From a virus (lineage: Duplodnaviria; Caudoviricetes): a stretch of 29,756 nt of DNA. A model generated the notes under the pieces. It did not search any database and was not told where the DNA came from. It was given only the letters and a program-made list of their open reading frames with translations. The stretch lies in IMG/VR virus record IMGVR_UViG_3300027234_000013, positions 1-29,756 of that record; one strand, written 5' to 3'. The position numbers were made by a program, and so were the translations under genes. This document shows, piece after piece, positions 1 through 21,238 of this stretch. Each line of letters opens with the position of its first letter. The first letter of the stretch is position 1.

Positions 1-2120
1 CCTTTCTGAGGAGATAAGTCGAGAGCGTCTAGTTGTGTTAGGATATCTTCTAGCGGCTCTGCTTGGTATAACTCAACAAACTTCTGCCTAACGTGCAAAA
101 ACATGTGATTCATATTACCAGCATGACAACCAAAAGAGTCATGGACAACGGTTGTAGTGTAGTCCGCATCGTGGATACACATTGTTAGGTGAACAGCGTC
201 TAGACTGTGCACAATGTTCGGTGCAGCACCTGTCTTCTGTTTACTTTCATTAAGAGTAGTTTCTTCCCAAACCTGCAGTTGAACTTTAAGAAGCTCTTCA
301 CCGTATTTTAACTCGGTTCTCTTAGTCGTTGGTTTTCGGTAAGCCTGAAACACAGGGAAGTTAGTCACAGGTGAAACCCAAGTCAAGTATACTTTCTTTT
401 CGTTAGCTCTTTCAGCAAGAGTTTGGAACAGTCTTAGCATACGTGCAGGGCCCTTCAGCTCCTGATAGCAAGTTTGATACACGAGGGATCCCAGGAGGGC
501 ACCCCAGAGATGCTCTTTGTCCCTTAGATAAGGGGAGATATCCCTTGTGTCCTCTATCACCTGTTGGCCCATACCGTAGGCCGTGCCACCATAACCTAGT
601 GTCATGACGTTACGCTTTACAGTCTTACGCTGGATTTTCTTGTCCTGAATGTTTGTCCAGTAAACAGGAAAGAGTTTCTCTCGCAAGCCTCTGTTTTGAT
701 TACGCCAAGTCTGAGCTGCTTGAAACGCTAGAGCCTTTCTTTCAGACTTGTCTGGTGCTTCTTGATACTCCTTTTGAAGCTTTGTTGCTGTTTGAAACAC
801 ATCATTAAACTTGTTAATAGTTTCTGGTTCTAACTTGCTCTTTTTGTTTTCAAGGCTTTCCCAAGTCTTCTCTGCGATAAACATGTAAACATCGCCAGGA
901 AGGTCTTGAGGAACCAAGTTAACTAGAGGGGCGACTTCATCATCTTGAGACATAGCCACAAGGTGTTGAACACCGTTATTAGACCCATCGATATAGACTG
1001 GTAAACAACTTGGGAAGTCTTCTGGTTCGTTACCATCCCCATTCCAGTTAGAAACCATACTATGCTCATGACAAGCAGACAAGAAGCTAAACGGTTTGTC
1101 AGCTTTCATCCAACCAGTATTTTTCATAGGATTGTTAACATAAGACATCATGTCGTCAAAGTTATCTAGAACCCACTGAGCACGGTCATCAAGACTAACC
1201 TTGTCATTACCCCAAACGTTAGCAGTGTGAACACACAACCAGTAGTAACCGTTTTCCCCAAGAGGCACTGCCTCGTCTAGCATTAGGATACCCTTTGCAT
1301 TGTCACTAGACTGCTCGTGTAGGAAGGCTGTGTTAGGGTAGATACGACCACGGAAGTCGAGGTTATACAAGTGATAGAATGGCTTGTCTAGGTTCTTCTC
1401 TGCAAGCCTCTGGATAGCCTCTGCTTCGATGATTAACGAAGCCCGTTTAATTGGATCAATCTCTTTTGTGAACTTAAAAGGGTTTGACTCAGAGTGCATA
1501 CACTGCTTGTAAACCTCAAAGACAGGTTGGTTGATACGCCAAGCTGTATTGTTTAGCTTATTTAGAGTATCAACAATATAGCTCATGTCATTCTTCTCAA
1601 AGTACTTCAGAGCATCTTCATAGCCTTTCTTAATGACACTGATACCTGTTGTAGAGTGATAGGCAGAACCATCCCAAGGCGCTGCGGGTGTGTTTACAGG
1701 GAACATGTCACACTTCTCAGTGTCTACAAGATCCAGTAACTCTTTAATTGCTACCCAGTCTTTTGCGTAGATGAAGTAAGTTCTGTGTTTATCTTTTTTA
1801 CCATTACGATACGTGTGTTTCTTACGATAGCCCAGTATCCCAAGCTCAATATAACTAATTAGAACAAACCAGCCACCTTGAATGTCTAGCACACTGTTTT
1901 GTTTCTGACGTAGTTTCTGTCTTAACCTTCTACCAATACTACTAGCTACTTCCACTAGGCTGGAGTTTCTTTCTAAACCCTTTAAAATGTGAGTGTAAGA
2001 GAACTCTACAATATCTCTCGCCCCCATTTCAGTTAAGAAGCTAGCCGCTTGTCTTTTGTCTAACATTCCTTGTCTGTATTCAAGATCTTTCGTTAACTTG
2101 TCTAGAGTATTTTCGATCAT
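1..2120 (-). CDS. T7-family single-subunit DNA-directed RNA polymerase (stand-alone; C-terminus runs off window; absent from supplied ORF track)
   Basis: Manual translation from ATG 2120 (SD AAGGA) is open to the window edge, about 706 codons. Motifs: LDFRGRIYP (~1350), motif A YIDGSNNGVQHL (~980), motif B RKTVKRNVMTLGYG (~610), APNIVHSLDA (~210), motif C VVHDSFG (~140). Confidence 0.96.
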   Translation of the reverse strand, partial: MIENTLDKLTKDLEYRQGMLDKRQAASFLTEMGARDIVEFSYTHILKGLERNSSLVEVASSIGRRLRQKLRQKQNSVLDIQGGWFVLISYIELGILGYRKKHTYRNGKKDKHRTYFIYAKDWVAIKELLDLVDTEKCDMFPVNTPAAPWDGSAYHSTTGISVIKKGYEDALKYFEKNDMSYIVDTLNKLNNTAWRINQPVFEVYKQCMHSESNPFKFTKEIDPIKRASLIIEAEAIQRLAEKNLDKPFYHLYNLDFRGRIYPNTAFLHEQSSDNAKGILMLDEAVPLGENGYYWLCVHTANVWGNDKVSLDDRAQWVLDNFDDMMSYVNNPMKNTGWMKADKPFSFLSACHEHSMVSNWNGDGNEPEDFPSCLPVYIDGSNNGVQHLVAMSQDDEVAPLVNLVPQDLPGDVYMFIAEKTWESLENKKSKLEPETINKFNDVFQTATKLQKEYQEAPDKSERKALAFQAAQTWRNQNRGLREKLFPVYWTNIQDKKIQRKTVKRNVMTLGYGGTAYGMGQQVIEDTRDISPYLRDKEHLWGALLGSLVYQTCYQELKGPARMLRLFQTLAERANEKKVYLTWVSPVTNFPVFQAYRKPTTKRTELKYGEELLKVQLQVWEETTLNESKQKTGAAPNIVHSLDAVHLTMCIHDADYTTTVVHDSFGCHAGNMNHMFLHVRQKFVELYQAEPLEDILTQLDALDLSPQK

Positions 2121-2178
2121 TCACTATTCCTTACGTAGACATTGTACTCTTGTACTCTACTTTTCTGGGACATAATAG

Positions 2179-2250
2179 TTATTCGTCGTCGCCCTTATTA
2201 TAAGCTTTCACAAGCACATACAATAGGAATACGCCAATAACTTCTACCAA
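2179..2250 (-). CDS. Possible 23-aa hydrophobic microprotein (MVEVIGVFLLYVLVKAYNKGDDE)
   Basis: TTG start 7 nt after GAGGT SD; hydrophobic N-terminal half; very short. Confidence 0.35.
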   Translation of the reverse strand: MVEVIGVFLLYVLVKAYNKGDDE

Positions 2251-2292
2251 TATACTTACCTCTTTATAGATTTGAAAAAAAAAGCTTAGTTT

Positions 2293-2324
2293 AAAACCCC
2301 CCACTCCCCGAAGGGAGTGAGAGG
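2293..2324 (-). terminator. Rho-independent terminator
   Basis: Minus strand CCTCTCACTCCC-TTCG-GGGAGTGGGGGG-TTTT, just after the HTH gene stop. Confidence 0.8.
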
Positions 2325-2332
2325 CGTTTGTC

Positions 2333-2566
2333 TTAACCGTTCAATCGTGGGTTGTTAGTGTCTAGTGTTTTAACCCAGTTACGAACAGAGTCCCTACAGC
2401 AACCAAGGTCATAGGCAACCTTAGCAATGCTCTCGCCGTTAATTACACGAGAAGCAGCAACAACACGTTCAGCGTTACTCCGACCCTTATAGGGTTGCCC
2501 CTTTTTAAGAGTGTAACGAGAGTTGCTATACAGGGATGAGATGGAAGGGAAGTTACGAGTAGCCAT
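2333..2566 (-). CDS. Small helix-turn-helix DNA-binding protein, 77 aa
   Basis: SD TAAGGAG; GESIAKVAYDLGCCRDSVRNWVK fits a classic HTH pattern. Confidence 0.75.
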   Translation of the reverse strand: MATRNFPSISSLYSNSRYTLKKGQPYKGRSNAERVVAASRVINGESIAKVAYDLGCCRDSVRNWVKTLDTNNPRLNG

Positions 2567-2608
2567 AAGAGATCTCCTTATTTATTGGCATTACAGACCC
2601 TGTGGTCT

Positions 2609-2641
2609 AAAAGACCCTCCAACTTTTTAGGGCTGGAGGGC
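2609..2641 (-). terminator. Probable rho-independent terminator
   Basis: Minus strand CCCTCCAGC-CCTAAAAA-GTTGGAGGG-TCTTTT. Confidence 0.55.
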
Positions 2642-3241: not shown

Positions 3242-3242
3242 A

Positions 3243-3299
3243 TGGGTTGTTGTGTTGATATATGTTATATCATTATAGATGCGCTAGCTTTCTCGGTTT
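3243..3299 (-). promoter_or_regulatory. Class-I putative phage promoter, copy 3 (GAGAAA-N7-GCATCTATAATGATA + inverted repeat + CAACCCA)
   Basis: 15-bp core (3268-3282) identical to copies at 4632-4646 and 5093-5107; lies upstream of an SD and a gene cluster. Confidence 0.7.
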
Positions 3300-3685
3300 T
3301 TATAGAACAAATGTGTTCCAACTTTACTTACATACTCTAAATCATCTGCCCAGTAAGGCCAGACATAGTCTGCATGGTAGTGAGTAGTGTCTGTTCCAGG
3401 CAAGTATGTCTCAGGCTCAGACAAGATAATAGCGGCTGTCTTGTAGATCTCCTCCCATGCTTGTTTGTCTAGGTAACTCATTTTTGTAGGGTCATCAGTC
3501 AGCCCATCGTGTGTCCAGCTGAACTGTTGATTTTGGTAAACCACGTCACAAATTGTATCGGGGTAGCTGCTAGAAGCAACTCGATTAAGAGTCACCTCCG
3601 CTACCATTTGCTGTCCAGCTATAGGCTCATTGCGAGCTTCAAAAAACATATTAAGTGCCAGACACATTGTTGCTGTCATAATCAT
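3284..3685 (-). CDS. SleB-like cell wall hydrolase (Hydrolase_2 family)
   Basis: CLALNMFFEARNE...VAEVTLNRV...YPDTICDVVYQNQQFSW...HYHADYVWPYW...VGTHLFY signature. Confidence 0.9.
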   Translation of the reverse strand: MIMTATMCLALNMFFEARNEPIAGQQMVAEVTLNRVASSSYPDTICDVVYQNQQFSWTHDGLTDDPTKMSYLDKQAWEEIYKTAAIILSEPETYLPGTDTTHYHADYVWPYWADDLEYVSKVGTHLFYKNRES

Positions 3686-4585: not shown

Positions 4586-4666
4586 TTTGGTTTCCTCTTG
4601 GATTTCCACTTGGGTTGATGATAAATGATTTTATCATTATAGATGCCTTGTTTTTCTCACTTTTTT
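4583..4666 (-). promoter_or_regulatory. 84-bp promoter-RBS-ATG cassette, copy 2 (class-I promoter)
   Basis: Identical to 5044-5127; contains GCATCTATAATGATA, an 8-bp inverted repeat, GAGGA SD and ATG. Confidence 0.85.
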
Positions 4667-5046: not shown

Positions 5047-5127
5047 TTTGGTTTCCTCTTGGATTTCCACTTGGGTTGATGATAAATGATTTTATCATTA
5101 TAGATGCCTTGTTTTTCTCACTTTTTT
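5044..5127 (-). promoter_or_regulatory. 84-bp promoter-RBS-ATG cassette, copy 1 (class-I promoter)
   Basis: Identical to 4583-4666 (offset 461 bp); directly downstream of the structural operon terminator. Confidence 0.85.
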
Positions 5128-5165: not shown

Positions 5166-5191
5166 AAAAAAGGCCACCCCGAAGGGTGACC
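5166..5191 (-). terminator. Strong rho-independent terminator ending the structural operon
   Basis: Minus strand GGTCACCC-TTCG-GGGTGGCC-TTTTTT. Confidence 0.9.
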
Positions 5192-5536: not shown

Positions 5537-8500
5537 TTATCGACGATAGTTGTTCTCTTTATTCTGAGAATTCACGCCTTGGGCAATAGAGGGCATCATT
5601 TTGATAATCTCTTTACGAGTCTGTCTAGAGATGTCCCCTGTCACAGAAAGGTTAACTACTGTCTGACTAGCGTTACCAGCACCTCCCATAAAGCCTTTGA
5701 CTTTACTTTCAGGTACAACTAGCTCACCTGGAGTTAGCATTGTAGGTACACTGTCTACCCCTGTTTTAGAGTAAGGAGTATGAGGAACAATACCACCACT
5801 GTTCATAGCTGCACCAGCACCGCCGCTAAAGATACCTAAAATAGAACTAAGGAAGCCGCCGCCGCCGCTAGTAAGACCGCTAAAGGCAGTCTGTAAGAAA
5901 CCACCAACCTTTTCAGCCATACCAGAGAAAAGTGTACTAATGCCACTAAAGAAAGTAGATCCTGTTCCACCTTTAGCTGAAAGAGAAGATAACCCTTCAG
6001 TAATATTCTCACCAGTCTTTTTAGAAAGACCTGCCCCCCAAGACTTAATGCCTGTGAAGAGACCAGCCAGAGGGCCGTCCGTTCCGTCTTTACCGATAAG
6101 ACCTGAGAACAAAGATTCAGTAATACCTGTAGCAAAACTATCAATAACGCTACCAGTAAAGCTATCAAGCAGCATAAGGCCAAAGTTCTTAAAGTCACCT
6201 GTTTTAAGGGCTTCTGATAAACCATCTCTAAAAGAGCTAGCAAACTGAGTAGCAACTTCTTGCCCTTCGGTTTGTTTTGGTTTCTCCACTGGACCGTCGC
6301 CTCCAGAGCCTCCCGCAATTGCCCTGTCAAGAAGCTCAGCTAGGATCTCGTCCCCTTGCGAAGCCATGTTTCTAGATTTTAGTATGTCGGCTAGTTGTCT
6401 TGAAACTTTATACAATTCCTCATCGATACCTGCAACCCAACTATTTGAGCTTTCTCTAGTCGTTCTTTCCATGTTAAGAGCAAGTTTAACGTTGTTCGCT
6501 GCTGTGTCAGGGTCAATCTCAAGTGTTGCTTCAGCTTCTGGACCACCACCATTTGCTCTAAACACAGGCATAATACCTGAGTTGATCTTAGACATAAAGT
6601 CTGGGCCAAACTTATTGACAGCAGAGGCTTGTATGACATACTCACCCTTAGACAACATCGCAGGGATACTGTCTGAGGTGCTTGTGCCTGGGCCGTTAAT
6701 TAGGCCTCCTGTGGCCTTATTTGCAGGTAATGCACCTGGTACATCGCTAGGTAGAGGTTCACGCGATGATATTGTTTGTAAGGGTTTATCATTGCTTTCA
6801 AAGCCGAAAAGATCGCGAATTTTAGATTTAATATTGTCGAGACCTTCCATAAAGCCATCCGCCAGGGATCCCCCAACACCTTTAACCCAGTCTTTGATAC
6901 CTGAAAGAGCTTCGTCCCTTAGCCACTCCCCAAACTTAGTTGCTGCTTCATTCATAGAAGTTTCTAGGTCGGTAATCCAAACATTTAAATTAGATGACCA
7001 ATCGTTTATCGTAGTAGTTAAACTGTCTAACCAACCGTCTAACGCAGCTAGTACCTCAGGGCTTTTAAACAAAGCTGCCATGGCCCCCGCAGCGGCACCA
7101 ATACCAGCGCCAATAGCAGTGCCAACACCAGGTACAATAGAACCTAGCTGACCCCCTAGAACAGCGCTAGATAATGCAGAACTAGCAATACCTGTTATTT
7201 CGTCTTCTATTGCACTAATTTCTTTGTCGCCAGTACTTGAAAACCAAATTTCCCCAGCTATTTCAACTGCCGCCCCTGCCGCCGCTGCTCGAATTCCACC
7301 TTTAACTAGTTTTCCAAGGATGTTACCTGCGTTGATTGCGTTTCTTGCACCCACCCCGCCAATAAATAAAATACTTTTTATAGTCTTAGAAAAAGCTTTA
7401 TTTCCTTTAGCTGTAAAACCTACACCAAAGAGTCCAGAAGCAAGCGAACCAGCTGAACTTAAAAGTCCATTTTTAACAATACCAACAGTAGAAATACCAA
7501 GAATAGCAAGAGCAACAGCCCCCGCTAGCTTATCAGTTAACGCACCAGTGTTTTCAAAGCCAAAACCTTCTAAAATCCCTTCACCTACGCTCCCCATAGT
7601 GGAAACAATAGCTGAAAGAATTCTCTGGCCATAGCCTTTTCCTTCTCCGTCTGCTTTAAAGAAGCCAACAATGCCTTCGCCAATCTTTTTACCAATGGCT
7701 TTAGTTATTCCGTTTTCGTTAGCCCATTGAAGAATATCTGGCAAGAAGTAGAGCCCAGCTACAGTAAGTGTAATTCCACTTGTTAAAACTGTCCCTAAGC
7801 CAGTAGCAATAAGATAACCTAAACCTAAGAAAGCACCTTGCATAAGGTTTGATCTAAGCTCTGCAGGAAGGACTGCTACGATACCTGTGGCGATAACGCC
7901 CCCTATTGCTAGCCCCTTTTTATGATCCCAGAGGAAGTTACCTACGCTATTAGCAAATTCACTTGCGGTTTCAACACCGCCTCCAGCTCCCATGAGTCCG
8001 CCGACTTTACCGTCACGAGGCCCGCCGATACTTTTACCAAGGATTGTTTCATCTATTTTAGTAGATAAATCTTTACCAAGGCTCTTGGAGATTTCACTAA
8101 TCTTCTCTGCAACTGAGCTAAGATACCCAAGAAGCCCACCTTGCTCGTTGTAGCTAGCTGTGAGCGCTTCTATGGTTTCCCCTAAAAGTTCCTTCTTACT
8201 AATGAAACCAGAAGTAACAAAAGCAAAGCTCTCAGAGGCACTTACTGCCTCTTTTAGCTTGTCAGTGAAGGTGGAGATACTCATAGACACGCTGTCAAAG
8301 AAGCCCACAAGGCCTCCTGTCATGACTTTTCCGCCTGGAGTTTCTTTCTCAATGCCGTAGTACAGTTCTTTGAAAACAGCTATAACGTTTGATGAGAAGT
8401 CCCTAATTTTAGTGATGAAGCTTCCAAAAACAGAGTCTCCGACAAGGCCTTCTAGAGTAACATCGCCAGCATTCTCTTTGTGTTTTTCTAAGAAGGGCCC

Positions 8501-9688
8501 AGGAATTAAACTATCACCAGCAAGAGGATTATACCATAGATCCGTAAAGATTGCTATAACATTTTTGACAAAATTCTCAAGCCTTTTGACAAGGGCATCT
8601 TCTCCTGTAACCAAAGAGTTTAGTTCAATTGTAGGGATACTAGCCTTCAACCCCTTAAATAAGTTCTCAAAAGGAGAATCTTCACTAGTCTGTTCACCAA
8701 TGCCTAACAGTTGTTTAACTGCGTCAGTAGCTTTGGCTAGGTTCTCTCTAAAGTTTTCAATGTTAAAATCAAAAGAAAACAAATCCATTATTGCAGCTTT
8801 TGATTCATCAGCTGTAATTATAACCGATCTCGCAAAGTCAAGGAAATGATACTTGGCTAGCAGAGTGTAGTACTCAGCCCAGTCAGCAAAAAAGCTAAAA
8901 ACTTTAGTGAGCGTTATAATTTTAGAACCGACTCTAGCAGAAATACCAGTGATCTTATCAAGCTCATTCAAGGCCCTTGCAAACTCACTCTGCATAATAG
9001 AAGTAAGTTCTTCAATTGTAGGTGTTAGTAGGTCAAATTCTCTTCGGATATCCACTAGAGAGCCCAAGAGAGCATCACTGAGAACATCAGAAGTAATAAG
9101 ACCGTCAGCGGCCATTTCTCTAAGCTCTTTACGACCAACATTCAGAGACTTTGTTAAGGCTCTTAGAATTTCAGGAGCACCTTCAGAAACAGAGTTAAAC
9201 TCTTCACCACGAAGGACACCTGAAGAAAAGGCTTGACTAAGCTGGAAGAGAGCTGCTTGCTGTGTAGCTAAGGGTTGACCACCTAGTTTAGTTGCCTTGT
9301 TAATAGCCTCAGTAATTAAAAGGAATTCACCTGAACTTCTTCCAGTTCCTTCCATTGCTCTAGCAAGTCGTGAGTAGTTTGTAGCAGTGTCTTGAAGGCT
9401 TGTTCTGGACTCAATACTAAGCTTATTAAGCTTTGCCATAATGCCAGCAGTACCTTCACCCGCCGTAGTAACCAGCCTAAGTTGGTTGTTAAGCCGTTTA
9501 AAGCCATCCGCAGCAGACACAATGCTTTTAGTTGTAACAAAACCAGCATAAAAACCAAGGGCCCTTTTAATGGAACCTGCAAGGTTATGTGTTGCTTTTG
9601 TTATATTGCTAACGCTGTCTTCAACTTTTTTAAGTTCAGACCTAGCTTGTTGGGTATTAGCACGTACCCGAATTTCTACACCACTCAT
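5537..9688 (-). CDS. Tail tape measure protein (~1383 aa)
   Basis: Start re-set to ATG 9688 (SD AAAGGAG); N-terminal tape-measure motif QLSQAFSSGVLRGEEFNSVSE; A/G-rich helical body; GPGTSTSDSIPAMLSKGEYV motif; follows tail chaperones. Confidence 0.93.
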   Translation of the reverse strand: MSGVEIRVRANTQQARSELKKVEDSVSNITKATHNLAGSIKRALGFYAGFVTTKSIVSAADGFKRLNNQLRLVTTAGEGTAGIMAKLNKLSIESRTSLQDTATNYSRLARAMEGTGRSSGEFLLITEAINKATKLGGQPLATQQAALFQLSQAFSSGVLRGEEFNSVSEGAPEILRALTKSLNVGRKELREMAADGLITSDVLSDALLGSLVDIRREFDLLTPTIEELTSIMQSEFARALNELDKITGISARVGSKIITLTKVFSFFADWAEYYTLLAKYHFLDFARSVIITADESKAAIMDLFSFDFNIENFRENLAKATDAVKQLLGIGEQTSEDSPFENLFKGLKASIPTIELNSLVTGEDALVKRLENFVKNVIAIFTDLWYNPLAGDSLIPGPFLEKHKENAGDVTLEGLVGDSVFGSFITKIRDFSSNVIAVFKELYYGIEKETPGGKVMTGGLVGFFDSVSMSISTFTDKLKEAVSASESFAFVTSGFISKKELLGETIEALTASYNEQGGLLGYLSSVAEKISEISKSLGKDLSTKIDETILGKSIGGPRDGKVGGLMGAGGGVETASEFANSVGNFLWDHKKGLAIGGVIATGIVAVLPAELRSNLMQGAFLGLGYLIATGLGTVLTSGITLTVAGLYFLPDILQWANENGITKAIGKKIGEGIVGFFKADGEGKGYGQRILSAIVSTMGSVGEGILEGFGFENTGALTDKLAGAVALAILGISTVGIVKNGLLSSAGSLASGLFGVGFTAKGNKAFSKTIKSILFIGGVGARNAINAGNILGKLVKGGIRAAAAGAAVEIAGEIWFSSTGDKEISAIEDEITGIASSALSSAVLGGQLGSIVPGVGTAIGAGIGAAAGAMAALFKSPEVLAALDGWLDSLTTTINDWSSNLNVWITDLETSMNEAATKFGEWLRDEALSGIKDWVKGVGGSLADGFMEGLDNIKSKIRDLFGFESNDKPLQTISSREPLPSDVPGALPANKATGGLINGPGTSTSDSIPAMLSKGEYVIQASAVNKFGPDFMSKINSGIMPVFRANGGGPEAEATLEIDPDTAANNVKLALNMERTTRESSNSWVAGIDEELYKVSRQLADILKSRNMASQGDEILAELLDRAIAGGSGGDGPVEKPKQTEGQEVATQFASSFRDGLSEALKTGDFKNFGLMLLDSFTGSVIDSFATGITESLFSGLIGKDGTDGPLAGLFTGIKSWGAGLSKKTGENITEGLSSLSAKGGTGSTFFSGISTLFSGMAEKVGGFLQTAFSGLTSGGGGFLSSILGIFSGGAGAAMNSGGIVPHTPYSKTGVDSVPTMLTPGELVVPESKVKGFMGGAGNASQTVVNLSVTGDISRQTRKEIIKMMPSIAQGVNSQNKENNYRR

Positions 9689-9708
9689 TTTGGCTCCTTT
9701 AATAAAAT

Positions 9709-9752: not shown

Positions 9753-9756
9753 GTTC

Positions 9757-11964: not shown

Positions 11965-11965
11965 A

Positions 11966-12301: not shown

Positions 12302-12807
12302 TAGTTAGCCCTCCACCAGCTTGTGCCTAACCCGTCAACACCTCTTCTTAGAAGGGGTCGGATAGGTTTAATAACAAAACTAGGAGTTACAGAGATTCTA
12401 GTAACATCGTTATTAGAGTCGCTGACACTGATACTACCAATGCTAATACTCTCGTATGTTTGGGTTGTCTGTGCTACCAAGTCTTCGTTATTTAGCAGGT
12501 GTAAAGCCTGTTCATAAACAGCTACTTTGACTAGAGAAGGGATTTCTGTTTCAGAAAAAGCAATTTGCATTCCCATTCTATTATCAAGGTAGTTAGCGTT
12601 TCTTCGTGGCCATGCAAGAGCTTGGGAAGAACTAACAGCAGAGCCAATCCAAGGATTGTTGTCAATAATTTGTGTAGCAGTCACTAAAGCTTCTTCACGG
12701 GTTGAGTCTGGAGCGGAAGTCCAACTAGCAGAATCAATTCGTGTTTCAAAGTAAGCGTCAGCGTCAGCTATTTCCACATAACTATTAGTATTAAGAACTA
12801 AAGCCAT
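12301..12807 (-). CDS. Head-tail adaptor (often annotated DnaT-like)
   Basis: NSYVEIADADAYF...ALVTATQIID...QALAWPR...VKVAVYEQAL signature; directly after capsid. Confidence 0.78.
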   Translation of the reverse strand: MALVLNTNSYVEIADADAYFETRIDSASWTSAPDSTREEALVTATQIIDNNPWIGSAVSSSQALAWPRRNANYLDNRMGMQIAFSETEIPSLVKVAVYEQALHLLNNEDLVAQTTQTYESISIGSISVSDSNNDVTRISVTPSFVIKPIRPLLRRGVDGLGTSWWRAN

Positions 12808-12825
12808 TAGCTCCTCCTAGTCTTA

Positions 12826-13941
12826 TTATGAGTGGTAGATAGGCAGGATGCCCAAGTTCAATGAATCCATTTTACGGTTCCAAGAGCCAGCAGTTGCATA
12901 CGCACCGTTAGTTGCGAAAGCATTGGTTGCGCCAGCCCAGTCATAACCCATTGGGTGCATGATGAAGCCATAACGGTACCAGATGTTTGTCGAGCCACCA
13001 CCTGTGTAGGAGGCTGCATTACGATCAACTTCAACAGGAGTTGGAGTGGATACTGGTGCGAAGGAAACCGAACCTGGCTTCAATACGAAAGAACACTTAG
13101 CAGAAGTAGCGTTCAGGTCGCCCGATGCAGGTGTGATTGTCTGGCTTGCACGAGTCATGATCAGGCGGAACTTACCACCGAAGACTGTGTCAAACTCAAG
13201 GTTGCCGTCTTGTACACGAGTTTGGTCAACCAAGTTAGCTGCACGCATTTCAGCCATAACTTCTGGGGAAGTTGCCAAGTACATGAAGTCTGGTTCCATG
13301 TCTTTGTAAGCCATACCAACAGCTTTGAAGAGACGCTCACCACGAGCCGCACCAATAGCGGAGGAGTCAAAGAGGCGACGTGCATCGGAAGAACCTGTTG
13401 CAGCAGCACCGAACTCGCCAGCAGCGTTGATGTCAACGAAGAAGCCAGTGTTTGCAGCGTCTACGTCTGTATCGAAGGATACGATACCACCGTTACCTGT
13501 ACCACCAGCGTCACCGAGGGCAACCTCGTGAGCAGCAACACCTTTGAGAACGTTCAAGAGTGCATTACCCTCGTCGTCGCCACGTACTTTTGCGAAGTCA
13601 CGAGCAATCTTGGAGAGACCGTCTTGCTTCGAAACAACTTCCTGCAAGTTAACCTGCTGTGCACCGAATGTACGAACAGTCTTAACATAGTTAGCAATGT
13701 CAGTTGCGATGTCTGTGTAAGCGCCATCAGCTGCAGACGACAACGATGGAACGTTGATGTTTGCGGAGAGTGGCTTGTACCAACGGAACTGACCAACAAA
13801 GGACTCGCCGTTTGCATTGATGTCGTCACGCTGGCCAACGATGCCAGTGGAGTTAAGCTTTTTCTCAGTTGTGTAAGCCTCATCTGCATAAGCAGAGATT
13901 GCAAGTGCTACGTTCTGAAAGTCTGTGTTTGTAATAGCCAT
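12826..13941 (-). CDS. Major capsid protein
   Basis: 371 aa after scaffold; C-terminal VEVDRNAASYTGGG...RYGFIMHPMGYDW...WNRK pattern; strongly biased codon use. Confidence 0.88.
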   Translation of the reverse strand: MAITNTDFQNVALAISAYADEAYTTEKKLNSTGIVGQRDDINANGESFVGQFRWYKPLSANINVPSLSSAADGAYTDIATDIANYVKTVRTFGAQQVNLQEVVSKQDGLSKIARDFAKVRGDDEGNALLNVLKGVAAHEVALGDAGGTGNGGIVSFDTDVDAANTGFFVDINAAGEFGAAATGSSDARRLFDSSAIGAARGERLFKAVGMAYKDMEPDFMYLATSPEVMAEMRAANLVDQTRVQDGNLEFDTVFGGKFRLIMTRASQTITPASGDLNATSAKCSFVLKPGSVSFAPVSTPTPVEVDRNAASYTGGGSTNIWYRYGFIMHPMGYDWAGATNAFATNGAYATAGSWNRKMDSLNLGILPIYHS

Positions 13942-13971
13942 GATTTATTTCCTTATGGTAACTATTATATA

Positions 13972-14652
13972 TTAATAGGAGTAATTACCCAGCTGACCTT
14001 TGGCCGCTAGTGCAAGAACTTCTTCTGTTGTCATTTCACCAATAGTTTTCTTTTGTTCCATTGATGAGGTGCCAGAGGCATTTGTTTTACCAGCACCTGT
14101 GTTTGCTTTAATGCGGAATAGAAATGAATTGTCTTCACTCTTAGAGTAAGACTTAATAAAATCTTGAATGTTTGTTCCTGTTTTATGAACCCAAAGACCA
14201 TCATCATTCTGAACGAGTTGCTCGACAATATCACGATAGGCCATTTGGCGACTACGCTCGTTACGGAAGTCAAGGCCCCCTAGTACGGAGTTAACTACAC
14301 TATCCCGATTAAGCTTTACGTTTTCTTCTTCAAAAACCTTTAGCTTAGCCTGAGCTTCAGCAAGCTTTAGCTCTAGAACCTCTTGCAGTTTACCTTCTTC
14401 TTCCAGCCGTTGAATATGGGCTTGTTTTTGCTTTTGTTCAACTTCAGCAGCTTTTTTGAGAGCCTCGTCGCGCTCACCAGCCATGCGATCCATATTGGAT
14501 TTCATTTTGGCGAGCCTTTCTTGGACTTCACGTTCAATCGGATCTACCTCACTATCAGTGACAGCTTCCTCTTGAACTGTTTCTTGTTCTTGAGTCTCAT
14601 TGAACTCATCGTTTGCAGTTACTTCTTCAACTACTTTATTTTCTTCACTCAT
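13972..14652 (-). CDS. Capsid scaffolding protein
   Basis: 226 aa, acidic N-terminus, long coiled coil, FLF...GAG C-terminal pattern; immediately upstream of capsid. Confidence 0.8.
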   Translation of the reverse strand: MSEENKVVEEVTANDEFNETQEQETVQEEAVTDSEVDPIEREVQERLAKMKSNMDRMAGERDEALKKAAEVEQKQKQAHIQRLEEEGKLQEVLELKLAEAQAKLKVFEEENVKLNRDSVVNSVLGGLDFRNERSRQMAYRDIVEQLVQNDDGLWVHKTGTNIQDFIKSYSKSEDNSFLFRIKANTGAGKTNASGTSSMEQKKTIGEMTTEEVLALAAKGQLGNYSY

Positions 14653-14751: not shown

Positions 14752-17700
14752 CTATGGACCAATTCCATACCAGTCTTCTCCTTCAAGGATTGGAGCGAGT
14801 ATGTCTTTTCTTGTTATCTTATCGGGCGGGTCAATTAGACCCAGTTCTTTAGCTTTGTTTAAAAGCTCATTATACGATTTCCTTGAAAGACCTTGTCTGC
14901 GCATTTCTGCCAGCGTCTTCCTAATCGTATCTCCTTCAAGAGCATCTGCATAGATGGTCCTTAAAGCATCTTTTGCACGTCTTGCTTCACCAAGGTTAGT
15001 AAAGAAAGCATCGTGAATAGTCGCAGTTTCGACATTGTTTTTCAAACCCCACAAGTGGAATTGTCGAACAATTGCAGCGTCGTTACTGTGATTTCCGTTA
15101 ACACCTAGTCCAATACGAGCGTCGTTAAGCGAGCTTTTACCAAGAAGTTTGCCATCTTCTGCGGCAGCTTCATAGATATTTGCTACTCTACGTCCTGTTA
15201 CAGGGTCCGTAAACTCAATACGCTCTTGGAGCTTTGGTCTATATCTTTGTGTCATAATTTTTCCGTCAAACGTAACCCAGGGTATATCTACCTTTTGAGT
15301 ATCGTTAACGAATACCTTTGCAACGTCTTTCCAGTAGTTGATAAAGTTATCAGTGACAGGAGCACGTTGTGCTAGGTTTCTAGACATAATTCTTGAGATT
15401 TCAGTGAAATCTTTAGGTCCAATAATGCCCTGTCTAGCGTCCATTAGCTTATTAACAAAGTCAGCAACATCTGGGTGGATGTCTTGCGCCTGTTTTAACA
15501 AGGTTCTACCAGCAGGTTCATTTTTGTTTATTATCTCAACAAGTTCATCCCTAAAAGACTTAAGTTCTGCCGAAACAGAGCTAGCTCCGAGTCTATCTGC
15601 AACCTTAATCTTACCATCAATAATACGAAGGTTCTCAGAAAGTGTTTCCTTAGTTACTGTAATAAAGCCCTGTGATTCAAGAACCTTAGCAAACTTACCA
15701 GAAACATTTGCAGTCTTAGTTGCATCACCAGCACCATAGAAGCTTACCATGTTCTGGGCTTTAGCAGCTTTTGCTAAGTCTTCCCAAGTTAACTTTGCAT
15801 TTCTTAAGGCAGGAATCTTTAGAAACTCAGGGTCGTTAACAGTATCCATCGCAACAAGGTCATACAGTCTGTTCTTTTGTTTTGTTGCCAAAACGTTAGA
15901 AGCTTGAGAAACCGCTCTATCACCAGTAGACAGACCAATAATTTGAGCACCAGAAGAACTGGCGTCATTTTCAATCATTAGTTTTGTTCTGTAGCTAGTT
16001 AAGGTTTTGCCAGACTTAAGGTGTTTATCAATGCGAGAGTACTCTAAAGCCATTCTAGCCATCTTAGGCACTTCTGGGCCTTCAAGCCCTCTTATCAGAG
16101 GATGTTCAAGAAACTCACGAAGGCGTCTATCTCTTTGAGTAGTAGAAGAAATAAGGTCACCTAGCTCTACTAGTTTTTCACGATTTCTGTTAAAGATTTC
16201 TCGACGACCAGCTTGTGTGAGGGCTTCTGTACCAGGTCCGATTAAAGCGCCAAGCTGAACCTTTAGCTCATCTAACGCTCCGTCTGACATGTTAACTGCT
16301 CTTCCAGAGTTAAGGAAAGGTCGAACAAGCTCACCTCCTGTTGGAGTTAAGTAGCCTCTATGGTATACTCGACCACGGGAGTCAATAAACGCTTGAGTCT
16401 TGAAGTTCTTACCTCGTTGAGCATGATACTTGGCTGTGGACATAAGCCCATACCCTTGTTCACCTCGTGCAAGGATTTCATGACGAAGTTCATTTATGCT
16501 ATCATAATACTTTGAGTTACCACGGGGGTCTCTAAATCTAACAATATCATCCATAAACCCAAAGAATTCGTTGTCTACACCATACTCAACATTCATGACA
16601 TGATTAAGCATCTTTGCCATATCTCTATCAATCTGCTTTTCGTCGTAGTCAGCAAACTTGTCTCTAGAGATTATGGGAACACCAGTGTCATTACCACGAG
16701 CATCAACGTAGGTCTTCTTACCTGCTTTTACATAAAGCTGGTCTCTGCCTGAAGTAACTCCGAGCCGTCTAGAAATGGTCACCCTACGTTCAGCTTCTTG
16801 TAGCTTTATCAGTTCTTTGTTTACTACAATAACTTCCCTAGAAATAACGTCTGAGAAACCCCCAGAAGCCCGTCCTGTTTCAACGTCTATTACACCTCTT
16901 CGAGTTGTACCTCTTAGGTTAACTTTGATATAGCCTTGAGACTTAAAAAACTCAAGAATTGCAGAACCTTCTTTGTGGAAGTCTTTTACAGTGTGTTTTG
17001 TAAAAGGAATTATATCTACAAAGTCTTTCGAAAACTGTTTACCAATGTTAATAGCTAGCGCATCATAGTCAGTAGACTGACCAGAGGCGATTAGCTTAGA
17101 AATCTTAGTAAGACTGTTTATTGCTGCTTCATTGAAGATGGTGTCTGTAGGTTTCTTCTTCGCAATAAGAAATTCTAAGTCAAGTATTTGTCTAACGTTT
17201 TCCCTACCACTCGCCATGGTTTTTGTAAACCAGCTGTCGGAAGGTTCCTTGTTAGTTACTTTTTTATAGAGTTTGTATGCCTTATCTAGTTTTGGATTTG
17301 CCTTTAAAAACTGTTTCTTGAGCTTTTCTGCTGAAGGGTATTTGTCAGTAAACTTATTAAAGTACAAACGCATGGGTGCTCTGCCAGAAAGGAAAAGCTT
17401 CCTAGCTAACTTCTTACCTTCAGTCCTTCTCCAAGCATCAATGAATCTTTGGTCCTTTAGTTGATTCTTTTGCAAGTCATCAAAAGTATAGTACTTGTTC
17501 ATAATGTTAACTTGAGGAGTGTCTTTAGCTAGATAGCTAACAAACATCTCAGAACGCTTACGGGAACGAGTATCTAATAACCTTGAAACGTTTTGAACAG
17601 AAAAACGATTTTCCGCTCTAACAACACTAGCAAAGTTATCCCAAGGTTTCTTATCTTTTGCATAGCGCTCAAGAACAACTCTTAGGTTTTCTACTATAAC

Positions 17701-19116
17701 TGTTTGTTGGTTTACTGAGAGTTTACCTTCAAGTCCAGTAACAACAGACTCTACAAAATCTTTTTGTTCAAGGCTTATAAGTTTAGAACTTCTCATAAAG
17801 TCAAGACGTTCTTGCAAAAGACCAAAGTCAGGATCATAAAGATTGTTGTTCTTAATTTCACCAGTCAAAGGGTCTGCACTAAAGTTTCTTTCATCAAAAG
17901 TATTGTTTACTCTTCGTCTTGATGCGGTTTTACCAACTAGGCTTGTACCTTTGTAGTCTGTCAAAGAAATAGTCTTTGAGTAGTCATCTGCGTCTAAAAT
18001 AAACAACTGACGTAAATCATCTTTGGCCTTTGGGCTACTTACAAGGCTACTTGGACGGCTTGCAGAAAGCCTTAAGTCCGTACCCCTAAGCTGTTCTTTT
18101 GGCTTGAAAACAGTAGTTGCCTGTGAGGCTCTGTTTCTAAGCGCTTGAATGCTTAAAGCATTACCTTTTGGTGTTATAAACTGATCCGCTTTTAGCTTAC
18201 CCTGCCTGAACATATTAGCAGCGTCTTCAGAACCAAGTAGCTTTGACTGAATGACCATAGGTTGTTTCAATAGCCAAGTGCCAAAAGACTCAACACGAGG
18301 AGCTTGTCCTGTGAGGCTTTCAGGCTTCTTCTTAGCAAGATTAAGCTTGTTTATTTTTGGTGTCTTTTCATTAATAAGTTCTTCTTTACTTTTAAGTACT
18401 GGAACCATCGATGAACGACAATTCCAATGTAAAGGCGGTAAAAATCTAGTATCATCCAGATCATAAATTTTTCCATTATGGTGAGAACAGATTGGGCTAG
18501 TCCTAGAGTCAAGAATAGCAGTAAACATGTAACCCTTGATAATGTCTTTATTATCATTAACTACTTTTCTTAAAGCAGCAGTTTGGGTTGAAGTAATTGC
18601 AGTCCTTGTTAAGGTCTTAGCTTGATATTCTGTTATTTTTGTTGTTTTCAAAACATCTGCAATGATCTCGTTTTGAGAGGATCCTTTTGCAAGCCCAGCT
18701 TTCACTTTTGATTGAATGCGGACTAGCTCTCCAGCAGAGATATTTTGGACATTTTGACCAATTGTTTTAGAGCCTCTCATTGTGGGGCCAGTAACCTCCG
18801 CCAAAAGCTCTCGTGCCTTGGGCTTAGTCACTTTGTAGAAGTCTTTAACTTCCTTGTAGAGGTTATCTGTATAAAAGTCTAGCTGTGACGTAGAGAACTC
18901 TGTTATTGAGTTCTTTTTATGAGCTAAAAGCTCAGTGCCAAAGCGGCTGACTTCTTTAGACAAGTTTGCTCTAATATTACCCCTTAAGAGTGTTTTTAGG
19001 TTATTCCTATGTCTTTTTAGAATTCTTCGGTTCTGTAGCTGTACACCTTCTTCGTACAGACGGACGTCTGACATGTGGTCTACAATTCTATCAAAAATCT
19101 TTTCGTTAATATCCAT
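14752..19116 (-). CDS. MuF (Mu gpF/SPP1 gp7-like) minor head protein fused to a T7-family RNA polymerase; putative virion RNAP, 1454 aa
   Basis: N-terminus: TLTRTA...FTAILDSRTSPIC...GKIY...PPLHWNCRS (aa ~165-240). C-terminus: IDSRGRVYHRG (~910), ENDASSSGAQ (~1050), KAQNMVSFYG (~1120), NGNHSNDA, TIHDAF (~1368). Located between portal and scaffold. Confidence 0.9.
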   Translation of the reverse strand: MDINEKIFDRIVDHMSDVRLYEEGVQLQNRRILKRHRNNLKTLLRGNIRANLSKEVSRFGTELLAHKKNSITEFSTSQLDFYTDNLYKEVKDFYKVTKPKARELLAEVTGPTMRGSKTIGQNVQNISAGELVRIQSKVKAGLAKGSSQNEIIADVLKTTKITEYQAKTLTRTAITSTQTAALRKVVNDNKDIIKGYMFTAILDSRTSPICSHHNGKIYDLDDTRFLPPLHWNCRSSMVPVLKSKEELINEKTPKINKLNLAKKKPESLTGQAPRVESFGTWLLKQPMVIQSKLLGSEDAANMFRQGKLKADQFITPKGNALSIQALRNRASQATTVFKPKEQLRGTDLRLSASRPSSLVSSPKAKDDLRQLFILDADDYSKTISLTDYKGTSLVGKTASRRRVNNTFDERNFSADPLTGEIKNNNLYDPDFGLLQERLDFMRSSKLISLEQKDFVESVVTGLEGKLSVNQQTVIVENLRVVLERYAKDKKPWDNFASVVRAENRFSVQNVSRLLDTRSRKRSEMFVSYLAKDTPQVNIMNKYYTFDDLQKNQLKDQRFIDAWRRTEGKKLARKLFLSGRAPMRLYFNKFTDKYPSAEKLKKQFLKANPKLDKAYKLYKKVTNKEPSDSWFTKTMASGRENVRQILDLEFLIAKKKPTDTIFNEAAINSLTKISKLIASGQSTDYDALAINIGKQFSKDFVDIIPFTKHTVKDFHKEGSAILEFFKSQGYIKVNLRGTTRRGVIDVETGRASGGFSDVISREVIVVNKELIKLQEAERRVTISRRLGVTSGRDQLYVKAGKKTYVDARGNDTGVPIISRDKFADYDEKQIDRDMAKMLNHVMNVEYGVDNEFFGFMDDIVRFRDPRGNSKYYDSINELRHEILARGEQGYGLMSTAKYHAQRGKNFKTQAFIDSRGRVYHRGYLTPTGGELVRPFLNSGRAVNMSDGALDELKVQLGALIGPGTEALTQAGRREIFNRNREKLVELGDLISSTTQRDRRLREFLEHPLIRGLEGPEVPKMARMALEYSRIDKHLKSGKTLTSYRTKLMIENDASSSGAQIIGLSTGDRAVSQASNVLATKQKNRLYDLVAMDTVNDPEFLKIPALRNAKLTWEDLAKAAKAQNMVSFYGAGDATKTANVSGKFAKVLESQGFITVTKETLSENLRIIDGKIKVADRLGASSVSAELKSFRDELVEIINKNEPAGRTLLKQAQDIHPDVADFVNKLMDARQGIIGPKDFTEISRIMSRNLAQRAPVTDNFINYWKDVAKVFVNDTQKVDIPWVTFDGKIMTQRYRPKLQERIEFTDPVTGRRVANIYEAAAEDGKLLGKSSLNDARIGLGVNGNHSNDAAIVRQFHLWGLKNNVETATIHDAFFTNLGEARRAKDALRTIYADALEGDTIRKTLAEMRRQGLSRKSYNELLNKAKELGLIDPPDKITRKDILAPILEGEDWYGIGP

Positions 19117-19172: not shown

Positions 19173-20741
19173 TTATTCTTGTACGTTTACTGAGTTATCC
19201 GCAACAGTATCCACAAGAGGATCTGTTTGAATTTCTTCTCTTGCAGAGTCATCATCGTAGTCAGCCGGTAGGAAGTCGTTATACTTCGCAATGCTAAGGA
19301 AAGTACTTCTACTGATAATACCAGACTGGTACCACTCAGAGACGAGGCGCATAGCACCCTCCCCGCCTACCATTGGAGCAAAGTCGCTAGACATTTGGAA
19401 ACCAATATCAGAACCAGAGTAGTCTGTGTTATACTTCCAGTTTAGCATAAAAGCAATAACCTCTCTTAGCGTACCAGAGATTTTGGCGTTAAGCGTACCA
19501 AGCTGTGCGGTCTGAGAAGCATTTCTAATCTCAAGAGCAACACCAGAAGCCGCCTGTTCAGGTGACAACATCCGAATACCCATCTTAGCCATCTCTTCGA
19601 TAGTAGAGGAAATTGCACGATCCATGTCTGCTAAAGCACCTGTAGGCGTTTCAAGTACACTAATGCTCTCATCTTTACGAACACGCAACCAAGATCCAAG
19701 GCCAGAGTTAACTAGCTCTTCAAACTCTTCGTCAGTCATGTCAGACTGTACGATAGGTGTGTAAGTCGCTGCACCGTATAGTAGGTGGTTACGACGAGAT
19801 ACCTTGTTGTAGAGAGAGACCTCTCTGTCAATCAGTGGCATAAGCACAGGTTCAACAGGTTCAATTTGGCCGTTAAGGGGCCAGGCTGGAATTCTATCAA
19901 TTCTTGTACCAAAGATAGTTGGGTAAACTGTCTTAACCTTTTTAAACTCCGCAGAAGCTGCATAGTCAACGTAGTCTTGCTTAACATCACCATTTAGAAC
20001 TTTGAGTTCGTTATTTGTGTCAGCATGTTCATAGTAATCAATAACTAGCTTACCACCCTCATCAAGGTAGTGATCACAAACAGTATCGACATAGTTAGCG
20101 TGCCACGGGTTGTTATCCTCATAACGAGAGGTTAGATAACGTGAAACGAGTCTACCAAGGGTTTTCTGTCGTGTAACAGGGTGAACAATTGTTTGAACGT
20201 TAATGACAGTCTCTGCCTCAAGCAAAACAGGGTAAGGGCGAATCGTATCTCTTTCTTCAGGAGACATGTTATCGTAGTCTGCTTCATCAATATCAGGATA
20301 GTCTACGTAAGCCCAAGCTCTAGAGGTTTGAAGTTCTTCCCAGAGAGCATTATCTAAGAAGTTAAAGAGGGATCTACCATCCAATGTAAAGTTATCTTTC
20401 AACCAGTAGTAAGCATCCTCTGGGAGTTCTTCTGGGAGTTCTAGCTGAGACTCTTTACGAAGCAAAGCACTAATAAGCACTTTACAGTACTGAGCAGTTA
20501 GACCAGGAAGCTCTGCTTCTGACTTGTAGAAGTCATACTGAGACTGGCTCATGCTTGGAGAAAAAGGGATCAACAAGTTAGTGTAGTCTCTCTCAATATA
20601 CTCATCGTGGGCTTTTACGTTAGACTGACCTTGAAGTACAGCTCTAGACTTTTTCCACAAAGGTTTTAGTGAGTGATAGCTATCACTTGGATCCGCAACT
20701 GACTTTTTAATAGCCTTTGTCGGTTTAGTTATTTGTGACAT
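19173..20741 (-). CDS. Portal protein (DUF4055-like)
   Basis: 522 aa; size, acidic tail, position upstream of MuF/scaffold/capsid, and EEMAKMGIRML...SGVALEIR pattern. Confidence 0.85.
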   Translation of the reverse strand: MSQITKPTKAIKKSVADPSDSYHSLKPLWKKSRAVLQGQSNVKAHDEYIERDYTNLLIPFSPSMSQSQYDFYKSEAELPGLTAQYCKVLISALLRKESQLELPEELPEDAYYWLKDNFTLDGRSLFNFLDNALWEELQTSRAWAYVDYPDIDEADYDNMSPEERDTIRPYPVLLEAETVINVQTIVHPVTRQKTLGRLVSRYLTSRYEDNNPWHANYVDTVCDHYLDEGGKLVIDYYEHADTNNELKVLNGDVKQDYVDYAASAEFKKVKTVYPTIFGTRIDRIPAWPLNGQIEPVEPVLMPLIDREVSLYNKVSRRNHLLYGAATYTPIVQSDMTDEEFEELVNSGLGSWLRVRKDESISVLETPTGALADMDRAISSTIEEMAKMGIRMLSPEQAASGVALEIRNASQTAQLGTLNAKISGTLREVIAFMLNWKYNTDYSGSDIGFQMSSDFAPMVGGEGAMRLVSEWYQSGIISRSTFLSIAKYNDFLPADYDDDSAREEIQTDPLVDTVADNSVNVQE

Positions 20742-20752
20742 TTATAGTTCCT

Positions 20753-21040
20753 TTACCATTTGACTTTATTTGCCCAGTAAGCAGCAGACATTGGGCCCTT
20801 GTCAATATTTGTTTGATGGCGGGCTTTCCAAGCTAAACGTCTTTTACGATCAGCCTCAGACTCACCTTCTTTTTTAGGAGAGCCTTTAGCACCTTGAGAA
20901 CCAAACCGAATTGTTTTAATAGTATCACCAGACTTAGCAACAACAACATGAGACTTAGTAGGGTGGTTTGGAGTACGTTTAGGCTTATTATAACCAGATA
21001 CACCAACACTAGTTAGTCTTGAATCTTTATCTTTAGCCAT
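20753..21040 (-). CDS. Small basic hypothetical phage protein, 95 aa
   Basis: SD AAGGAG; K/R-rich; IRFGSQG...WKARH...SAAYWANKVKW resembles a phage family of unknown function. Confidence 0.8.
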   Translation of the reverse strand: MAKDKDSRLTSVGVSGYNKPKRTPNHPTKSHVVVAKSGDTIKTIRFGSQGAKGSPKKEGESEADRKRRLAWKARHQTNIDKGPMSAAYWANKVKW

Positions 21041-21060
21041 TACAACGACTCCTTAGAATA

Positions 21061-21106
21061 GTATAGTTAAAGTATACCTTAAAGTATATACTTAAAGTAT
21101 AGTATA
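21061..21106. repeat. AT-rich short repeat array (TTAAAGTATA x3, with overlapping palindromes)
   Basis: gtatagTTAAAGTATAccTTAAAGTATAtacTTAAAGTATAgtata; includes perfect palindrome AAGTATATACTT. Confidence 0.8.
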
Positions 21107-21125
21107 GGGTGGGAACCCTGGCGGG

Positions 21126-21148
21126 TTATTCTTAAACGTCAGGTATTA
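21126..21148 (-). promoter_or_regulatory. Class-II putative phage RNAP promoter TAATACCTGACGTTTAA|GAATAA (predicted +1 at 21131)
   Basis: Exact 23-bp repeat; aligns position for position with T7 TAATACGACTCACTATA|GGGAGA. Confidence 0.8.
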
Positions 21149-21215
21149 GTGAGGGAGGGATACTTAAACCCCTCCCCAAAGAGACTGTCAGAAAACTTGA
21201 GAGTTTGTCTGTCTC

Positions 21216-21238
21216 TTATTCTTAAACGTCAGGTATTA
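21216..21238 (-). promoter_or_regulatory. Class-II putative phage RNAP promoter, upstream copy (predicted +1 at 21221)
   Basis: Identical 23-mer 90 bp upstream; first three bases double as the spanin stop codon. Confidence 0.8.

Follow-up and report, generated by a model that had tools for sequence, protein, structure and literature searches.

The stretch of DNA considered here (referred to as the window) spans the entire IMG/VR record IMGVR_UViG_3300027234_000013 (29,756 nt) and is a fragment of an aquatic, Naomviridae-like siphophage, kin of DSS3_VP1. The minus strand carries every long gene, in the order PhoH, tail-tip genes, endolysin and spanin, portal, a MuF protein of 1454 amino acids (aa), scaffold, capsid, tail genes, tape measure, an HNH gene, a small-gene block and, truncated at the contig end, an RNA polymerase (RNAP) gene. 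The MuF protein also contains an RNAP of the T7 fold, and two classes of repeated motif are found as candidate promoters, class I ahead of the small-gene block and class II ahead of the head and tail genes. It is likely that the two enzymes work as a relay with matched promoters, the MuF-fused one (MuF-RNAP) on class I and the stand-alone one on class II. Among 50,697 phage records searched, the best full-length matches of both RNAPs are those of the Naomviridae phages (Noahvirus) DSS3_VP1 and DSS3_PM1, with identities of 61.7% for MuF-RNAP and 56.9% for the stand-alone RNAP. Gene order, the class I core and the class II frame are common to these phages and the window, so that synteny and protein similarity both place it with Naomviridae.

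The MuF-RNAP gene (14752..19116, minus strand) lies between the scaffold gene and the portal gene directly upstream (19173..20741, minus strand; phrog_145, E 1e-48), and its product has a PF04233 domain at aa 134-237 (E 1.7e-15), as expected of a MuF protein of the SPP1 gp7 type. The MuF region reaches to about aa 333 and is followed by a helical part, and the polymerase begins at about aa 545. PF00940 gives a weak match at aa 1032-1410 (E 6e-6), and a sequence search against PDB chains returned no match at E 1. The catalytic residues D1051 (motif A), K1119 and Y1127-G1128 (motif B) and H1368-D1369 (motif C), together with D912 of the DxxGR motif, are invariant in 96 aligned proteins. A structure model of aa 261-1454 (predicted local distance difference test, pLDDT, 80.6) matches T7 RNAP at Foldseek E 6e-19, and T7 RNAP is its best match (VIA Z 30.1, root-mean-square deviation 3.7 Å, 524 residues aligned), above the mini virion RNAP (mini-vRNAP) of N4 with Z 20.1. 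Two strands of a specificity loop are seen in the model at about 1295-1303 and 1310-1318. The structural match begins at about aa 545 and leaves some 200 residues after the MuF region outside it; an ESM Atlas search of aa 334-560 gave no usable match. By motifs and fold, MuF-RNAP is a T7-like single-subunit polymerase, for which promoter-specific synthesis is predicted. Its family comprises 394 clusters at E 1e-10 (7995 candidates scored), and nearly all of 120 homologues among the matches listed keep both domains. In G002, G054, G062, G066 and EBPR siphovirus 1 (L100:21305-26678) the gene is split by insertions, which are probably introns; the one in EBPR siphovirus 1 carries an HNH gene.

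The stand-alone RNAP gene (3..2120, minus strand) encodes 706 of about 722 aa, the full length of 722 aa being judged from a relative that is 99-100% identical. A preliminary description of this DNA had put the gene at 1-2120 and quoted three polymerase motifs, all of which are present in the translation of the open reading frame 3-2120, with a PF00940 match at E 5e-80. In phmmer the protein aligns to T7 RNAP at E 2e-55 and the alignment covers the specificity loop. Motifs A, B and C align as well (motif residues D378, R498/K502/Y510 and H660-D661), and R601 and E603 in the loop align with R746 and N748 of T7. The enzyme is about 160 aa shorter than T7 RNAP and about 30% identical to it. That it differs markedly from MuF-RNAP, as had been described, is borne out by BLASTP, in which the two have no significant match (best E 0.12); a recent duplication is therefore not their origin. 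Both enzymes are encoded together in all records at least 90% complete, whether these were reached via MuF-RNAP (4/4), via the stand-alone RNAP (1/1) or via class I (4/4). A stem-bulge-stem hairpin, its bulge being AATG, lies at 2135-2160 (minus strand), immediately ahead of the RNAP start. The same shape with changed base pairs is found in G001, G002, G005 and G023, and this hairpin could control translation of the RNAP.

Class II occurs twice, at 21216..21238 (predicted +1 at 21221) and 21126..21148 (predicted +1 at 21131), both on the minus strand. The 23-mer is exact at both sites, no other site in the window comes within 6 mismatches, and only about 1e-5 identical 23-mer pairs would be expected in the window by chance. 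It has the 17+6 layout of T7 promoters. Related sites lie on the coding strand in 66 of 67 hits, distributed over 42 loci. In the preliminary description class II stood ahead of the head and tail operon. This is correct for the two copies here but incomplete, since in longer relatives the motif also directly follows the RNAP gene and precedes the genes for exonuclease, primase, terminase, PhoH/tail, portal and tape measure. The positions before replication and virion genes in long contigs indicate that class II covers both middle and late genes. In G016, which belongs to the most distant MuF-RNAP clade, another, class II-like repeat, AAGTGACACCTTCTAAAGAA, precedes PhoH and precedes the portal gene; the stand-alone RNAP gene of G016 falls beyond the fragment.

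In T7, R746 of the RNAP pairs with promoter position -7. De novo k-mer searches were dominated by coding repeats until only intergenic DNA was searched, or only the site in front of an SSB-like gene located next after the RNAP gene, and class II was scored at the latter. From 213 loci with an RNAP, 35 were left out (8 without the SSB-like gene, 5 short, 3 without a loop anchor, 14 without a frame match and 5 with weak flanks), and the remainder collapse to 83 distinct stand-alone proteins. Loop and promoter are concordant in 83/83: Arg at the position equivalent to T7 R746 goes with C(-7) in 66, and another residue goes with another base in 17. Among 28 distinct loop-promoter combinations the corresponding figures are 19 and 9. 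Asp and Glu occur with G at -7, Gln with A and Val with T. On a FastTree tree the 746-equivalent residue changes four times and the -7 base four times, and all four changes are joint. The 746-equivalent is the loop column that best predicts -7, and the 748-equivalent best predicts -12 and -11, loosely. The T7 specificity loop is known to recognize its promoter through R746, N748, R756 and Q758 (PMC11880802), and N748 goes with -11G and D748 with -11C, the substitution N748D shifting -11 from G to C (PMC8874028). The matching loop column of MuF-RNAP mispredicts -7 in 14 of the 25 contigs that have both enzymes and both classes. DSS3_VP1 differs from the window in class II at -12 to -8 and in the stand-alone loop, and barely in the MuF-RNAP loop. 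Since class II is repeated, strand-biased and covaries in its central bases with the loop, as a T7-type promoter should, it is almost certainly read by the stand-alone RNAP, and the covariation with T7 loop positions defines the purine following T(A/T)A(A/T) as its +1. A point against is the looseness of the -11 rule: of the 28 combinations Lys goes with G in 6 and with T in 3, and Glu with C in 5 and with T in 1.

The three copies of class I lie on the minus strand at 5080..5125 (box from 5125, core 5107-5097, predicted +1 at 5096, hairpin 5097-5080), 4619..4664 (box from 4664, core 4646-4636, predicted +1 at 4635, hairpin 4636-4619) and 3256..3300 (box from 3300, core 3282-3272, predicted +1 at 3271, 5' hairpin 3272-3256). 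A 15-mer is exact at 5107-5093, 4646-4632 and 3282-3268, and the window has no further site within 3 mismatches. A window-wide scan thus recovered the three copies of class I and the two of class II where the preliminary description had placed them. That description had also called the two motifs unrelated, which is not wholly so, as each finishes with T(A/T)A(A/T) and then a purine. Class I is, in addition, longer and two-part. Copies 1 and 2 sit in a single 89-bp duplication (5039-5127 and 4578-4666), and about 0.6 identical 15-mer pairs are expected by chance in the window; the case for class I therefore rests on copy 3 and on conservation in relatives. There, class I hits are on the coding strand in 30/30 cases from 12 related loci. 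The element consists of two parts. An A-rich box, with GTG(A/G)G(A/G)AAA at its end, occupies about -30 to -17, and the core, (GCA/GTA/CCC)TCTATAAT, has a purine after it; the fixed positions of both were set by the search pattern itself. Long contigs have class I in the interval from the end of the virion module to the RNAP gene, and 50 of 51 distinct regions carry it upstream of the stand-alone RNAP gene. When viral contigs were scanned with the three core bases unconstrained (134 of about 140 stretches), 182 hits in 130 overlapping loci were obtained, with the alleles GCA (105), GTA (47), CCC (24) and others (6). Family markers are present at 71 of these loci, 27 have only tape-measure or SleB matches and 32 have none; 29 of the last group are short loci without flanks.

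Some sites stand out from this pattern. A core without a box is found before orf104 of VP1 (L002:27793, VP1 67793) and in PM1 (L098:15946); in both it precedes an uncharacterized 660-aa gene far from the early block. In L014, L072, L094 and G022, a full class I element overlaps the ATG of the HNH gene that follows the tape measure, which places the predicted start within that codon; the window, with its HNH gene at 5198-5503 (minus strand), keeps only CTATAATG there. The word CCAAGTGG is found a few bases past the 5' hairpin of class I in many relatives, and in the window at 4604-4614 and 5065-5075 (minus strand).

The class I allele tracks the MuF-RNAP lineage in 35/35 contigs (17 GCA, 10 GTA and 8 CCC) on quick and FastTree trees, and it tracks neither the capsid lineage nor the stand-alone enzyme. 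The 8 CCC contigs have a MuF-RNAP on a long branch (C-terminal part 49-54% identical), and their capsid proteins (69-78%) group with those of the GCA genomes G002 and G036 (support 0.997). The GCA allele occurs together with five class II types and several stand-alone loops. In the loop of MuF-RNAP, residue 1312 is among the 6 of 333 columns that separate all three alleles. The most distant clade (G016, G017, G019-G021 and G027) is without the early block and provides no class I data. In G033, G034, G037, G049, G054, G065, G066 and G067, MuF-RNAP is 45-47% identical to that of the window (three whole contigs checked), despite capsid and tail proteins that are 69-86% identical. From these sequences, the divergent MuF-RNAP of this group is read as an allele swap or a burst of change in which the class I sites were taken along. 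Pelagiphage Kolga, which has a related stand-alone RNAP and a MuF protein without polymerase, has no class I site, although it is a single control genome; EBPR siphovirus 1 has none in 50 kb of its 54-kb partial record. The allele pattern and the result for Kolga suggest that class I is probably read by MuF-RNAP. The assignment of enzymes to promoters, put forward as a hypothesis in the preliminary description, has thereby gained support from both sides: class II covaries with the stand-alone loop, and the class I allele goes with the MuF-RNAP lineage. The link on the class I side is the weaker of the two because it consists of two or three allele changes only; the GTA contigs are possibly one lineage, the allele set has duplicate rows (G037/G067 and G030/G048), and G002 and G003 have single off-type copies (one GTA and one GAA, respectively). 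Host shifts could also be confounded with the allele changes. Each of these points counts against the proposed pairing, as does the T7 R627 position in motif B of MuF-RNAP, which is Ala1115 adjoining a nearly invariant Lys1116.

A different reader for class I has to be considered, since the core contains a perfect TATAAT. If this were the -10 element of host sigma70 and the box were bound by an activator, the stand-alone RNAP would still read class II, and MuF-RNAP would have some other task, such as pulling DNA in or priming. T4 middle promoters, in which an activator-bound upstream box is combined with a sigma70 -10 element, provide a model for such an arrangement, and the separate conserved box about 20 bp upstream suits it. 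Weak sigma70-like matches just before the RNAP gene also speak for sigma70, but at 9/12 they are at chance level. A sigma70 scan of 2000-5700 found 5 sites, none of them at any class I copy and none of the copies with a -35 match. TATAAT is preceded by ATC or CTC and not by a TG extension, and no -35 hexamer lies 16-18 nt upstream of it. Patterns of sigma54, sigma28 and sigma32, compared by eye, did not fit either. The hairpins bear on the register of transcription. At 74 of 165 distinct class I sites, a stem of at least 4 bp has a 5' arm that begins right after TATAAT, compared with a mean of 4.3 and a maximum of 11 in 500 shuffles, and stems at +6, +7 and +8 occur at only 4, 2 and 12 of the 165 sites. 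The loops vary and base pairs are changed between sites. A sigma70 start would cut through hairpins placed in this way, which argues against the sigma70 register. On the other hand, 59 of the 74 hairpin sites belong to one related family, no CCC site has a hairpin, and 69 stems reach to -1, all of which weakens this argument. Sigma70 also gives no account of why the core allele tracks the MuF-RNAP branch and not the capsid branch, or of the lack of class I in Kolga. Reading of class I by sigma70 is therefore considered improbable, and MuF-RNAP is kept as its reader.

A difficulty for the relay lies between class I and the stand-alone RNAP gene. Two terminators had been described between class I copy 3 and this gene, and both were found again as hairpins with U-rich tails: one at 2614..2641 (minus strand) followed by a short U-run, and a GC hairpin with a T-run at 2274..2324 (minus strand; hairpin 2297-2324), which separates the early small genes from the RNAP gene. 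Such a terminator-like hairpin is found at most 330 nt from the RNAP start in 48 of 51 regions, against 3 of 40 in-gene controls, and the distance from the last class I site to the RNAP start is 542-6173 nt (median 1514). These findings weigh against a direct relay, since a conserved hairpin at this place means that RNAP expression requires either read-through or an additional promoter. In G005 and G030, a class II site is found right before the hairpin, about 260 nt ahead of the RNAP start, which suggests that phage enzymes read through it. The class II site of these two genomes may also allow self-amplification of the stand-alone RNAP, and the hairpin itself may be an attenuator, perhaps as part of a feed-forward loop.

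Alternatively, the enzyme-promoter pairs may be as proposed while host RNAP is still needed for the RNAP gene or for blocks free of class II. Besides the conserved hairpin, several relatives have TATAAT-like words between hairpin and RNAP start, and both N4 and P23-45 are described as retaining a stage that depends on host RNAP (PMC13434306, PMC10770324). Complete genomes also contain long stretches in which no class II was detected (e.g., 14.4-37.3 kb of G006); this gives host RNAP a possible place and is a further point against independence. However, no conserved promoter motif was seen between hairpin and RNAP start, class II in G005 and G030 points to read-through by a phage enzyme, and class II precedes portal, terminase and tail genes, which N4 leaves to the host. 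Such a mixed programme is thus given only a small chance as an account of the whole. Full independence from host RNAP is itself favored by a narrow margin over some dependence.

According to the relay model, MuF-RNAP would be packaged at the portal through its MuF domain and ejected with the DNA. It would then start at class I and produce the early small proteins and, by partial read-through of the hairpin before its gene, the stand-alone RNAP, so that the second enzyme would be scarce at first. The stand-alone RNAP would start at class II and transcribe genes for replication, packaging, lysis and virion proteins, including new MuF-RNAP. For both enzymes the start would be the purine that follows the T(A/T)A(A/T) element, and host RNAP would have little or no role. 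Portal-mediated packaging is proposed because of the analogy to SPP1 gp7, a MuF protein that the portal targets into the procapsid and for which delivery has been proposed (PMC6316719). By this analogy, delivery of MuF-RNAP by the virion is probable. The 1454-residue protein would likely have to be ejected through a long tail, which is an argument on the other side. One may suppose instead that MuF-RNAP reads class I but is not delivered in working form, either because host RNAP makes its first copies or because the fusion is cut during head maturation and its polymerase part remains behind in the producing cell. The large size of 1454 aa and the genes split by insertions in several relatives would fit. 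Yet the gene follows that of the portal in the head operon served by class II, so that its product would be made last although its promoters are needed first, and both domains are kept together throughout most of the homologues listed. This possibility is regarded as very remote, and delivery with the virion is retained for the relay.

Relays with a similar logic are known from three groups of phages. In coliphage N4 and other Schitoviridae, a virion-borne RNAP of the single-subunit family makes a second phage RNAP: gp50 (vRNAP) is followed by RNAPII, gp15:gp16, and then by host RNAP (PMC13434306). N4 has a short tail, a vRNAP of about 3500 residues, extruded hairpin promoters and a heterodimeric RNAPII with cofactors, and its late genes are read by the host's RNAP (PMC13434306). 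The window phage has a long tail, to judge from its tape-measure and major tail genes, a 1454-aa MuF fusion nearer to the T7 fold, a one-chain second enzyme and class II before virion genes. Its class I hairpin differs from the upstream hairpin of N4 promoters in that it is downstream and missing from 91 of 165 sites, and box and core are unpaired across alleles. Pairing between box and core was considered and rejected, as CCC sites alone could pair.

The Thermus phage P23-45 is likewise a siphovirus in which a virion RNAP fused to a structural protein transcribes the block of a second RNAP, namely a tape-measure-fused vRNAP (gp96) and a non-virion RNAP (gp64) (PMC10770324). Its RNAPs are of the two-barrel cellular type, with the tape measure as carrier, and modified host RNAP serves the middle and late genes (PMC10770324). 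In the window both RNAPs have the T7 fold and the carrier is MuF; the tape measure has tape-measure matches only. Virion and non-virion RNAPs are also present in the jumbo phages phiKZ, AR9/PBS2 and phiR1-37, whose development is rifampicin-resistant, and several jumbo phages carry uracil DNA (PMC7598289), as does DSS3_VP1. The enzymes of the jumbo phages are multisubunit and their genomes exceed 200 kb (PMC7598289), in contrast to single chains and genomes of 60-80 kb here. By analogy, the logic of the proposed relay resembles that of all three groups, and by the features above the window phage belongs to none of them. T7 and Autographiviridae come close on the class II side, where the motif obeys the R746/N748 loop positions and serves replication and structural genes. 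T7, however, relies on host RNAP for its early genes (PMC7598289).

Fusions of MuF have been described in which the portal-linked minor head domain bears a C-terminal enzyme, presumably for delivery into the host (PMC5512222, PMC6316719). The cargoes given in the parts of these two papers that were available are nucleases, RelA/SpoT, PRTase, kinases and toxins, with no RNA polymerase among them. We found no publication describing a MuF-RNAP fusion or its relay, in a search whose coverage stopped short of most subscription papers and some supplements. In the report on DSS3_VP1, gp28 is annotated as 'minor head protein-like', and the term 'RNA polymerase' has no match in its main text (PMC8323127). 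The accessible text of PMC12669031 and of PMC12697855 likewise has no match to RNA polymerase, and in the supplement of PMC11880802 the VP1 and PM1 accessions occur, as far as seen, only in the sheet 'others'.

Upstream of both class II copies lie tail-tip and lysis genes (21236-29635), preceded, as in Noahvirus, by a PhoH-like ATPase (28907-29635, minus strand). The central tail fibre gene (1628 aa) has an internal 300-nt duplication (23883-24182 and 24711-25010, 80% alike). Downstream of class II, the scaffold, major capsid, head-tail adaptor, tail terminator, major tail and tape-measure genes occupy 5537..14652 (minus strand), and a terminator-like site at 5172..5191 (minus strand) ends this operon just before the class I block. 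A SleB-like cell-wall hydrolase (3284..3685, minus strand; PF07486) belongs to the early block and stands apart from the lysis genes; in the clade G006-G012 it is found near terminase instead. The last gene of the early block encodes a helix-turn-helix (HTH)-like protein of 77 aa (2333..2566, minus strand), with Pfam HTH matches under the cut-off, which is a candidate regulator of the class I box. Metatranscriptome contigs (4 runs, one sample) contain a relative that is mostly 90-99% alike across the early block, both RNAP genes and the head genes. A single contig spans the HTH gene to the RNAP start, and four end at 4614 inside the 89-bp repeat; as such contigs give neither starts nor single transcripts, they were not used as evidence. 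A search of GTDB for a prophage copy gave 11 pattern matches and no confirmed one. Thymidylate synthase (Thy1 or ThyA) was found in 0/17 relatives, and 8/17 have a dCMP deaminase match, which is missing from the nearest relatives of the window, themselves fragments. This pattern is compatible with uracil DNA in part of the family, without being proof of it.

If the relay is confirmed, it would be a further independent design of virion-delivered transcription beside those of N4, P23-45 and the jumbo phages, and it would extend the cargoes of MuF from toxins to a polymerase. The 28 distinct loop-promoter pairs, which differ at the R746 position, could serve as orthogonal polymerase-promoter sets, and MuF-RNAP, through its two-part promoter, may reveal a new mode of DNA reading by the T7 fold. 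The model is testable now, because DSS3_VP1, which is cultured on Ruegeria pomeroyi, holds all parts of the relay. Kin of these phages in Naomviridae are reported to be abundant in seawater (PMC12669031). The broadest reading, to which we give an even chance, is that widespread aquatic siphophages of 60-80 kb run their whole programme on two single-chain T7-fold RNAPs without host RNAP. One would be docked in the capsid by its MuF domain and use a new two-part promoter extending to about 30 bp upstream, and the other would use T7-style promoters, with a hypervariable loop providing a natural code from amino acid to base. If host RNAP is indeed not used, these phages would have reached, with small genomes and by an independent route, what the uracil-DNA jumbo phages solve with multisubunit enzymes, and host-independent transcription may then bear on the handling of uracil DNA.

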